Shown here one piece after another: positions 27,173 through 29,785 of a stretch of DNA of 64,000 nucleotides. Position 1 is the stretch's first letter. Every line of letters starts with the position of its first letter. Location: NCBI RefSeq assembly GCF_055900595.2, contig NZ_CM148325.1; one strand, 5' to 3'. The translations under genes were made by a program, and so were the position numbers. Below the pieces are notes generated by a model. The model was not told where the DNA came from. It saw only the letters and a program-made list of their open reading frames with translations, and did no database searches.

Positions 27173-27598
27173 ATGTATCGCATTGGTGAGCTGGCAAAAA
27201 TGGCGGAAGTAACACCCGACACGATTCGTTATTACGAAAAGCAGCAGATGATGGAGCATGAAGTACGTACCGAAGGTGGGTTTCGCCTGTATACCGAAAG
27301 CGATCTCCAGCGATTGAAATTTATCCGCCATGCCAGACAACTTGGTTTCAGTCTGGAGTCGATCCGCGAGTTGCTGTCGATCCGTATCGATCCTGAGCAC
27401 CATACCTGTCAGGAGTCAAAAGGCATTGTGCAGGAAAGATTACAGGAAGTGGAAGCACGGATAGCCGAGTTGCAGAGTATGCAGCGTTCCCTCCAACGCC
27501 TTAACGATGCCTGTTGTGGGACCGCCCATAGCAGTGTTTATTGCTCGATTCTTGAAGCCCTTGAACAAGGGGCGAGTGGCATTAAGAGTGGTTGTTGA
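27173..27598 (+). CDS. zntR: MerR-family Zn(II)-responsive transcriptional regulator ZntR (141 aa)
   Basis: MYRIGELAKMAEVTPDTIRYYEKQQMMEHEVRTEGGFRLYTESDLQRLKFIRHARQLGFSLESIRELL...; MerR HTH and C-terminal cysteine cluster. Confidence 0.95.
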   Translation: MYRIGELAKMAEVTPDTIRYYEKQQMMEHEVRTEGGFRLYTESDLQRLKFIRHARQLGFSLESIRELLSIRIDPEHHTCQESKGIVQERLQEVEARIAELQSMQRSLQRLNDACCGTAHSSVYCSILEALEQGASGIKSGC

Positions 27599-27653
27599 TT
27601 TTTTGCACTGGCGGGATTACACTCGCGCCGTTAAATAACCAACTGGAGTTTTT

Positions 27654-27872
27654 ATGAGCCGATATCAGCATACTAAAGGACAGATAAAAGATAATGCGAT
27701 AGAAGCATTGCTACATGATCCTTTATTCCGACAGCGTGTAGAGAAAAATAAGAAGGGGAAAGGTAGTTACATGCGGAAAGGAAAACATGGCAATCGGGGA
27801 AACTGGGAGGCCAGTGGCAAGAAAGTAAATCACTTTTTTACCACTGGCCTTCTGCTTTCAGGGGCTTTTTAA
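27654..27872 (+). CDS. arfA: Alternative ribosome-rescue factor ArfA (72-aa ORF)
   Basis: [50 protein letters not shown]...; 3' end overlaps the convergent mscL 3' end. Confidence 0.88.
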
Positions 27873-28279
27873 GAGCGGTTATTCTGCTCTTTCAGCAAAT
27901 CACGAATTTCTGTCAGTAATACTTCTTCTTTAGTTGGCGCTGGCGCGGCTGCCGGTTCTTCTTTCTTACGATTCAGTTTGTTGATTAGCTTAATTGCCAT
28001 GAAGATGGCAAAGGCCACAATCAGAAAATCAAAGACGTTTTGAATGAAGACACCGTAATGCATCACAACAGCAGGGATATCCCCCTGCGCATCGCGTAGC
28101 GTGACAGCAAACTGTTTAAAATCGATCCCGCCAATTAATAAGCCCAGAGGAGGCATGATGATATCGGCAACCAGTGAAGAGACAATCTTCCCGAATGCCG
28201 CACCGATAATGACACCCACCGCCAAATCCACTACGTTCCCGCGCATCGCAAATTCGCGAAATTCTTTAATAATGCTCAT
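27869..28279 (-). CDS. mscL: Large-conductance mechanosensitive channel MscL (136 aa)
   Basis: [61 protein letters not shown]... Confidence 0.97.
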
Positions 28280-28408
28280 GTTATTCTCCCTATGAAGCCG
28301 ACAACCATAAGTCTAACAAATGTTAAGCCATTTTCCTGCCAGGAATGAATTTAATTAATCCTTGAGAATCAAAGGGAAATAATAAGGCGTCATAAGACGC
28401 CTTATTAA

Positions 28409-29785
28409 TTACAAAAAGAAAGGACTTGGCTGGAAGAGTCTTTCGACGTCGGTAATAAACTTTTTATCTGTGAGGAACATAATTACATGATCGCCTTGCT
28501 CAATACGCAGATTGTCATTGGCAATCATCACATCATTGCCGCGTACTACAGCACCAATAATCGTTCCTGGCGGTAGCTTGATTTCGTCAATGACTCTGCC
28601 GACAACGCGTGAGGTGCTTTCATCACCGTGAGCAACGGCTTCAATAGCTTCTGCTACGCCGCGGCGCAATGAGGAAACACCAACAATATCTGCTTTTCGC
28701 ACATGGCTAAGCAACGCAGAGATGGTCGCTTGTTGCGGTGAAATTGCAATATCGATCACGCTCCCCTGAACCAGATCCACATAAGCGCGACGCTGGATCA
28801 ATACCATCACCTTTTTCGCGCCCATACGTTTGGCGAGCATGGCGGACATAATATTGGCCTCGTCATCGTTGGTGACGGCAATAAACAGATCAACTTGATC
28901 GATGTGCTCTTCAGCCAGCAGTTCCTGATCCGATGCATCACCAAAAAAGACGATCGTATTCTGCAGCTTTTCCGCCAGCTCGGCAGCGCGCTGTTGATTA
29001 CGCTCGATGAGTTTGACGCTGTAATCTTTTTCCAGACGACGCGCCAGCCCTGCACCGATATTACCGCCGCCAACCAGCATGATCCGCTTATACGGTTTTT
29101 CCAGACGTTGCAATTCACTCATCACCGCGCGGATGTGTTGCGAAGCGGCAATAAAGAACACTTCATCACCAGCTTCAACAATGGTCGAACCTTGCGGACG
29201 AATAGGGCGATCGTGGCGGAAAATGGCTGCCACACGAGTATCGATATGCGGCATATGTTCGCGCATGGTCGAAAGTGCATTACCAATCAGTGGGCCGCCA
29301 TAATAGGCTTTAACCACAGCCAGGCTGACTTTACCCTCAGCGAAGTTCACTACCTGCAGCGCGCCGGGATACTCAATCAGTCGGTAAATATTATCGATAA
29401 CCAGCTGCTCTGGTGCGATCAGATGATCAATCGGTACAGCATCTGAATGAAATAGCTTATCGGCATCGCGCACGTAGTCTGGTGAGCGGATACGAGCGAT
29501 GCGATTAGGGGTGTTGAAAAGTGAGTAGGCTACCTGGCAGGCAACCATATTGGTTTCATCTGAACTGGTTACAGCAACCAGCATATCGGCGTCGTCGGCA
29601 CCTGCCTCCCGCAATACGCGTGGATGAGAGCCATGCCCCTGCACGACTCGCAGGTCAAATTTATCCTGCAAGGTCCGCAGACGCTCACCGTTGGTATCGA
29701 CAACAGTAATATCGTTGTTCTCGCCAACCAGGTTTTCCGCCAGTGTGCCGCCAACCTGGCCGGCACCCAGAATGATAATTTTCAT
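28409..29785 (-). CDS. trkA: Trk potassium uptake system NAD-binding protein TrkA (458 aa)
   Basis: [48 protein letters not shown]...; two tandem Rossmann/KTN domains. Confidence 0.97.

Follow-up and report, generated by a model that had tools for sequence, protein, structure and literature searches.

In the 64,000-nucleotide (nt) stretch of DNA analyzed here (the window), arfA and mscL face each other tail to tail, and the last bases of their coding sequences are shared. This arrangement raises the question of whether the shared stop codons matter or whether the working element of the locus lies elsewhere. The arfA open reading frame (ORF; ATG start, 72 codons plus TAA) occupies positions 27654..27872 of the plus strand, and the mscL ORF (ATG start, 136 codons plus TAA) occupies 27869..28279 of the minus strand. 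As the original prediction had stated, the two genes are convergent and overlap at their coding 3' ends: in the ORF list and in the sequence itself, the arfA TAA (27870-27872, plus strand) and the mscL TAA (27871-27869, minus strand) interlock in the tetranucleotide TTAA at 27869..27872, giving a coding sequence (CDS) overlap of exactly 4 bp. Both gene assignments agree with RefSeq annotation (for arfA, that of the homologous locus) and with profile matches. ArfA matched Pfam PF03889 over residues 4-45 with 89.5 bits (curated cut-off, 25.5; E=9e-26) and is thus a member of this family; MscL matched PF01741 over the whole profile (1-123 of 123) with 160.8 bits (curated cut-off, 27.4; E=2e-47) and is a full-length member.

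The gene order around the pair, rplQ-yhdN-zntR-arfA> <mscL-trkA-rsmB, is the Escherichia coli arrangement. By tblastn, MscL is identical to E. coli MscL WP_000022442.1, and ArfA is 97% identical to the common E. coli ArfA cluster. The identical gene pair with the same 4-bp overlap is found in the RefSeq annotation of E. coli 2013C-4282 and of K-12 MG1655, and the arfA-mscL locus (741 bp) was found in 5419 of 5426 complete E. coli genomes. Positions 27600-28340 of the window (741 bp) show 97.0% identity to K-12 and 98.8% to the best-matching complete E. coli genome. The length and register of arfA are those of K-12, and the last ArfA residue is F in the window versus C in K-12. Over 12 kb, the identity of the window to complete E. 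coli genomes peaks at 99.2%. This is within-species divergence, as in an ordinary E. coli lineage, and it has no bearing on the arfA-mscL finding.

A long hairpin was detected entirely within the arfA ORF (codons 49-69), upstream of the stop overlap and without spanning the TTAA. It covers 27799..27859, corresponding to nt 146-206 of the 219-nt ORF (61 nt), folds on both strands, and is supported by an inverted repeat, by folding, by conservation, and by published stem-loop coordinates. The arms of the inverted repeat are 27799-27826 and 27832-27859; they comprise a base helix (27799-27802/27856-27859), a lower stem (27804-27817/27841-27854), an internal C/A mismatch (27818/27840), and an upper stem (27819-27826/27832-27839) closed by a loop (27827-27831). 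Nine nucleotides (27860-27868) lie between the hairpin and the mscL stop codon. A hairpin had been suggested beforehand for 27820..27880; it exists, but this range holds only its 3' arm. On the arfA strand, 27799-27859 folds into a 26-bp interrupted hairpin with -33.1 kcal/mol (z=-8.3); its mirror on the mscL strand reaches -28.9 kcal/mol (z=-6.4). The structure is far beyond chance on both strands, with 0 of 200 shuffles as good in either orientation. We conclude that this is very probably the standard Escherichia arfA-mscL tail-to-tail locus and that its working element is the 61-nt palindromic hairpin, by which arfA mRNA would be made non-stop, the mirror of which would end mscL mRNA, and from which arfA-derived RNA would reduce mscL mRNA. 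The ORFs, the hairpin, its conservation, its strand asymmetry, and the floating arfA stop described here and below were established in the present analysis.

The hairpin is common to both strands but is tuned for arfA. At several positions of the helix, a G·U pair of the arfA strand turns into a C·A mismatch on the mscL strand, and the fold is accordingly stronger on the arfA side; one of these G·U pairs (27807/27851) is invariant in 79 of 79 sequences. The U-tracts are also unequal. On the plus strand, the core stem is followed by the U-rich tract TTCTGCTTTC (27850..27859; 7 of 10 T), which, judging from its sequence and from the T count across 80 species, is likely a premature intrinsic-termination tail. 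The corresponding mscL-strand tail TCCCAGTTTC has 5 of 10 T, and across the 80 species the mean number of T residues in the 10 nt past the core stem is 6.4 on the arfA strand versus 3.0 on the mscL strand. As a bidirectional intrinsic terminator, the locus thus fits the definition in part: a hairpin forms on both strands, but a good U-tract is present on the arfA strand only. The shared 3' structure of the original prediction is therefore real in that the hairpin folds both ways, but it is shared unequally, since the G·U pairs and the U-rich tail belong to the arfA strand.

The same bias is seen in K-12, where the hairpin folds with -29.9 kcal/mol on the arfA strand versus -21.5 kcal/mol on the mscL strand. 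The 61-nt hairpins of the window and of K-12 differ at two positions. At window position 27849, a C forms a G-C pair where the T of K-12 forms G·U, making the stem slightly stronger on both strands in the window. The change at 27849 (considered together with 27799) makes the mscL-strand mirror hairpin about 7 kcal/mol more stable in the window than in K-12 (-28.9 vs. -21.5 kcal/mol). The stronger mirror hairpin could shift the balance of mscL termination or antisense pairing in the lineage of the window.

Other structure searches around the hairpin gave the following results. In an Rfam scan of 27400-28500 at permissive E-values, no family reached its gathering score; the sub-threshold chance matches at 27807-27851 were to miRNA precursor models (19-20 bits vs. 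gathering scores of 72-90). The long hairpin was missed on both strands by a consensus promoter/terminator scan, whose loop and stem rules do not fit this structure. The scan reported a short alternative stem (27849-27864) with CTTTTT as its tail; given the far greater stability of the long hairpin, we attribute this stem to the same U-rich region and rejected it. Another small hairpin, AAGAGCGG-UUAUU-CUGCUCUU (27871-27891, plus strand), lies directly 3' of the arfA stop in the last mscL codons. It folds with about -13 kcal/mol in context, with a z of only -2.8, and it might be a back-stop for arfA read-through or a product of chance.

The K-12 counterpart of this locus has the same gene, ORF length, and synteny (zntR-arfA><mscL-trkA), and its hairpin agrees with that of the window in ORF position (nt 146-206), loop, and internal mismatch. 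The two loci differ by point differences only (C at 27849 and F for C as the last ArfA residue), which leave the mechanism untouched. The 3' stem-loop of K-12 arfA (yhdL) was reportedly worked out by Garza-Sanchez (2011), Chadani (2011), and Schaub (2012), as summarized in PMC3989581 and PMC8012679.

According to two reviews from the groups that discovered the system (PMC3989581, PMC8012679), the arfA stem is cut by RNase III, and arfA mRNA increases upon rnc mutation or upon synonymous mutations that break the stem. Without RNase III, truncated arfA mRNA still ends just downstream of the repeat, indicating premature termination. The same reviews describe that the non-stop arfA mRNA is handled by tmRNA, that full-length ArfA is unstable, and that the stop codon of arfA is seldom reached. 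Morra et al. (2023; PMC10070815) place the regulatory stem-loop at arfA nt 146-206, to which the coordinates of the window hairpin are equal. They also showed that the arfA transcript is cleaved by RNase III in vitro by itself, with nt 166-189 and nt 190 to the stop as the RNase III products of K-12 arfA. The RNase III-dependent, non-stop arfA system invoked by the original prediction is thus well documented (PMC3989581, PMC8012679, PMC10070815).

Homology to the K-12 cleavage products predicts two RNase III cuts on the plus strand of the window, one in the 5' arm at 27818/27819, generating the non-stop 3' end, and one in the 3' arm at 27842/27843. The two predicted cuts have a 2-nt 3' stagger across the internal C/A mismatch, as expected of RNase III. 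With an mRNA end at nt 165, active truncated ArfA (residues 1-55, ...WEASG) is predicted to be encoded by 27654..27818 (plus strand). Applied to the window, the published mechanism reads as follows. RNase III would cut the arfA hairpin at 27818/19 and 27842/43, and the hairpin would double as a premature intrinsic terminator with the U-rich tail 27850-27859. Nearly all arfA mRNA would be devoid of the annotated stop, so that translation would stall at the 3' end. Normally, tmRNA would tag the ArfA product for degradation, and active ArfA(1-55) would build up once tmRNA is saturated. For the strain analyzed here, RNase III cleavage, premature termination, and regulation by tmRNA are expected by transfer from the nearly identical K-12 locus.

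Conservation was analyzed in a comparative set of 80 Enterobacteriaceae loci with one genome per species. Counts of overlaps, spacers, and U-tracts refer to 80 sequences (the window and 79 species loci), and pairing was analyzed in 79 distinct sequences with slid partners as controls. The two genes are convergent in every informative locus of the 80; locus L030, a 383-bp contig, was uninformative. In the 79 distinct sequences, 91.4% of the hairpin cells are pairing, compared with 42-64% in the slid controls. Never varying are 11 of the 26 hairpin pairs, and 5 of the 26 change on both sides; one pair is clearly compensatory (CG in 47, UA in 27, and UG in 5 sequences). The counts of both-sides-changed pairs and of pair types were not beyond those of shuffles (79 sequences). 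The stem is almost invariant in Enterobacteriaceae, which makes covariation a weak proof of structure, and a codon-position conservation test was used instead. With covariation this thin, the structural case rests mainly on frozen synonymous sites and folding energy.

In the codon-position test, the codons of the functional peptide (2-45) had a third-position identity of 0.63, and 0 of 44 third positions were invariant. In the hairpin codons 51-67, third-position identity was 0.90, and 8 of 17 third positions were invariant. At the very end of the ORF (codons 70-72), identity was about 0.5 at all three positions, with 0 of 3 third positions invariant. This pattern indicates that the hairpin is under selection at the level of its nucleotide sequence, whereas the C-terminal tail and the stop codon are not under selection. 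Further, three distant arfA genes with a 3' neighbor that is not a recognized mscL keep an internal hairpin and U-tract before the stop, from which we conclude that the hairpin belongs to arfA and that mscL came to use its reverse complement.

How mscL uses the reverse complement can be read from K-12 data. By Term-seq, an mscL-strand 3' end was mapped to 3438498 (+), described as 'antisense to arfA', in 3/3 growth conditions (Adams et al., 2021; PMC7815308, supplementary file 1). The Term-seq 61-mer of this 3' end maps to window positions 27795..27855 (minus strand) with 2 mismatches. By this alignment, the K-12-equivalent mscL 3' end would be window position 27795, located 74 nt into arfA and past the mirror hairpin. 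The putative mscL 3' UTR, delimited by K-12 Term-seq and by folding, is 27795..27868 (minus strand; 74 nt); it includes the mirror hairpin, is antisense to arfA codons 48-72, and folds with -29.7 kcal/mol (z=-5.9). From SEnd-seq, an mscL 3' UTR of +1 to +64 has been reported, as quoted by Morra et al. (PMC10070815). Independent, nonoverlapping 3' ends had been named as the outcome that would speak against antisense transcripts; in K-12, the Term-seq end of the mscL strand lies inside arfA (PMC7815308), and the ends are not independent. Antisense transcripts, as originally predicted, are thus supported, but they are not forced by the CDS overlap, which ranges from 0 to 65 nt in the 80 species, and most of the arfA mRNA has its end at the hairpin or shortly past it, short of the stop codon.

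In K-12, Rho-dependent regions were reported at 3438536 (+; score, 5.8) and, inside arfA, at 3438487 (-; score, 2.5) (PMC7815308). In window terms, these are located at roughly 27757 (minus strand) and roughly 27806 (plus strand), respectively. The region with the score of 5.8 is situated approximately 38 nt beyond the mscL-strand 3' end, and the poor average U-tract of the mscL strand (3 of 10 T) fits such an extra Rho-dependent region past the hairpin. Because of the poor U-tract and the Rho-dependent region further on, the end at 27795 may be a processed end instead of a true intrinsic-termination end. Rho may limit the read-through of arfA and mscL into each other; in the arfA/mscL literature, we found no discussion of Rho at this locus.

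The consequences of the overlapping transcripts for mscL were addressed in K-12 by Morra et al. (PMC10070815). The hairpin portion of arfA, or RNA released from it, lowers mscL mRNA approximately 2-fold, which is a modest effect. The in vivo evidence consists of a shortened half-life of mscL mRNA and of sRNA complementation, and the hairpin alters MscL-dependent protein excretion. In vitro, RNase III also cleaves the mscL 3' UTR itself, and mscL levels are affected by rnc. Moreover, mscL-arfA is named in the text of an E. coli excludon table based on RNA-seq coverage (ExcludonFinder; PMC12288877), and judging from this literature, the locus appears to behave as a convergent excludon. Under this mechanism, mscL transcription would pass the mscL stop (27869-27871) and the mirror hairpin and would end near 27795. 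The resulting mscL 3' UTR would show perfect complementarity both with the 3' region of arfA and with the small RNAs that RNase III releases from it, and these small RNAs would lower the stability of mscL mRNA. For the window, the 3' end of mscL and an antisense effect upon it are thus both predicted by transfer from K-12 experiments.

The complementarity suggests another reading, namely that the key RNase III substrate is an intermolecular arfA:mscL duplex, as in a classical convergent excludon, rather than the hairpin formed within arfA RNA. Perfect complementarity of the two RNAs spans at least 27795-27818 and reaches as far as about 27860, which would favor pairing in trans, as would the mention of mscL-arfA in the text of the excludon table (PMC12288877), the lowered mscL mRNA in the presence of arfA hairpin RNA, and the rnc effect on mscL levels (PMC10070815). 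However, RNase III cuts the arfA transcript alone in vitro (PMC10070815), and synonymous mutations that break the stem raise arfA mRNA. In addition, the G·U pairs of the hairpin exist only within the arfA strand, and an internal hairpin is kept by the three arfA genes without a recognized mscL as 3' neighbor. We therefore consider it quite improbable that the duplex is the key substrate. It is best seen as an added regulatory layer and not as the primary mechanism, which we assign to the intramolecular arfA hairpin.

Even less probable is a function of the TTAA overlap itself, for example in coupling termination or in fixing the relative reading frames. The overlap is exact and forms a tidy palindrome, and 22 of 80 sequences, including E. 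coli and many Citrobacter species, carry the 4-nt version. However, in 34 of 80 sequences the stops only abut (0 nt), and in 24 others the overlap varies from 6 to 65 nt: 6 nt in 1/80, 26-27 nt in 9/80, 33 nt in 2/80, 47 nt in 5/80, and 65 nt in 7/80 sequences. No constraint is seen at any of the three codon positions in arfA codons 70-72 and the stop, and the annotated ArfA length varies between 68 and 93 aa across species, with the end always past the hairpin. Direct coupling is also precluded because ribosomes on opposite strands translate different RNA molecules. Finally, the stop codon of arfA is seldom reached, and the full-length protein is unstable (PMC3989581, PMC8012679). Since the arfA stop is essentially never used, the 4-bp overlap appears to be an incidental, lineage-specific by-product. 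This calls for caution in annotation: 'full-length' ArfA ORFs of 68-93 aa, with overlaps of varying size into mscL, do not correspond to a normally made protein.

We give almost no credence to the view that the hairpin is primarily the intrinsic terminator of mscL, with arfA merely overlapping it and conservation reflecting mscL termination: this view would account for the strong mscL-strand Term-seq 3' end right past the hairpin in three growth conditions (PMC7815308) and for the 19- to 21-nt spacer between the mscL stop and the core stem in 69/80 sequences, but the mscL-strand fold is the weaker one (-28.9 vs. -33.1 kcal/mol in the window, -21.5 vs. -29.9 kcal/mol in K-12), the U-tract is on the arfA side (6.4 vs. 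3.0 T of 10), Rho-dependent read-through control is located just past the hairpin on the mscL strand (PMC7815308), and distant arfA genes that lack a recognized adjacent mscL carry internal terminator hairpins of their own.

With the hairpin assigned primarily to arfA, the spacer on the mscL side still deserves attention. The 19- to 21-nt distance is that from the core 3' arm (CCACTGGCC) to the mscL stop, and its conservation, as opposed to the free-floating arfA stop, is the reason to consider a translation-coupled layer on mscL. A ribosome terminating on mscL would be placed to modulate folding of the mirror hairpin, and mscL translation would thereby tune its own 3' end formation, the access of RNase III, and the pairing with arfA-derived RNAs. 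We regard this as unlikely, if somewhat less so than the alternatives above; the spacer could simply be inherited or reflect a generic terminator-to-stop distance. If true, translation coupling would constitute an extra layer above the published antisense cross-talk.

For E. coli, the hairpin in arfA, its RNase III cleavage, the non-stop logic, the overlap of arfA with the 3' UTR of mscL, and the antisense effect are already known from published work. The additions made here are comparative: the stop overlap as an accident of an unselected stop, the conservation of the hairpin and of its distance to the mscL stop, and the bias toward the arfA strand. The arrangement described by Morra et al. 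(2023, Life Sci Alliance; PMC10070815), in which the mscL 3' UTR is complementary to the arfA 3' CDS and the hairpin forms on both strands, is that of the window, with no structural difference. The paper places E. coli in its 'proximal' class, whereas the genes of K-12 overlap by 4 bp in RefSeq; this placement may stem from a distance measured from last nucleotide to last nucleotide, and the 'overlap' class (N=25) of that paper may be an undercount.

Two further systems are comparable. Excludons of the convergent type and bidirectional terminators lying between convergent genes (PMC12288877; Ju et al., 2019, cited in PMC10070815) share with the locus the convergence, the overlapping transcripts, a terminator embedded in the neighboring transcription unit, and the involvement of RNase III. 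Unlike in those cases, the arfA-mscL hairpin lies within a CDS and destroys the stop-codon context, and a good U-tract is present on one strand only. BrfA of Bacillus subtilis follows the same logic, with a rho-independent terminator inside the ORF of the rescue factor before its stop; it is likewise made from non-stop mRNA and kept low by trans-translation (PMC8012679). BrfA differs in being an unrelated protein, for which neither an RNase III step nor a convergent neighbor sharing the hairpin is described.

Several minor observations were made near the locus and in the genome sets. Just past the stop codon of trkA (28409), positions 28380-28407 (minus strand) hold a hairpin that resembles a terminator and has a T-rich tail. 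It overlaps a promoter-like site in the 129-bp trkA-mscL spacer, and together these two elements suggest that mscL is transcribed separately from trkA. Locus L087 (GCA_901420665.1, 2994156-2997371) has the same synteny with a frameshifted arfA, a fragmented trkA, and an uncalled mscL; this looks like an error-rich assembly and not like biology. The contig L030 (NZ_CACSJJ010000125.1, 383 bp), labeled Arthrobacter sp. 18067, encodes an enterobacterial-type ArfA (87% identical), which is almost certainly contamination of an actinobacterial assembly.

In E. coli MLI023K2 (L004:386-1083) and also in strain ET5, an IS1A element is inserted at the very 5' end of arfA, between zntR and arfA. For the IS1A-bearing loci, RefSeq annotates a shortened, 62-aa 'alternative ribosome-rescue factor A'. 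These loci are probably natural arfA knock-outs or promoter replacements. If arfA is knocked out by IS1A, tmRNA would be essential in those strains; tmRNA essentiality of this kind has been reported for Shigella flexneri (PMC3581467). Lastly, 1 of 5435 matching places in the E. coli genome set was on a plasmid, and one ArfA cluster (P0073) is labeled plasmid-borne in Enterobacter hormaechei. These cases point to occasional mobilized copies of the arfA-mscL locus.
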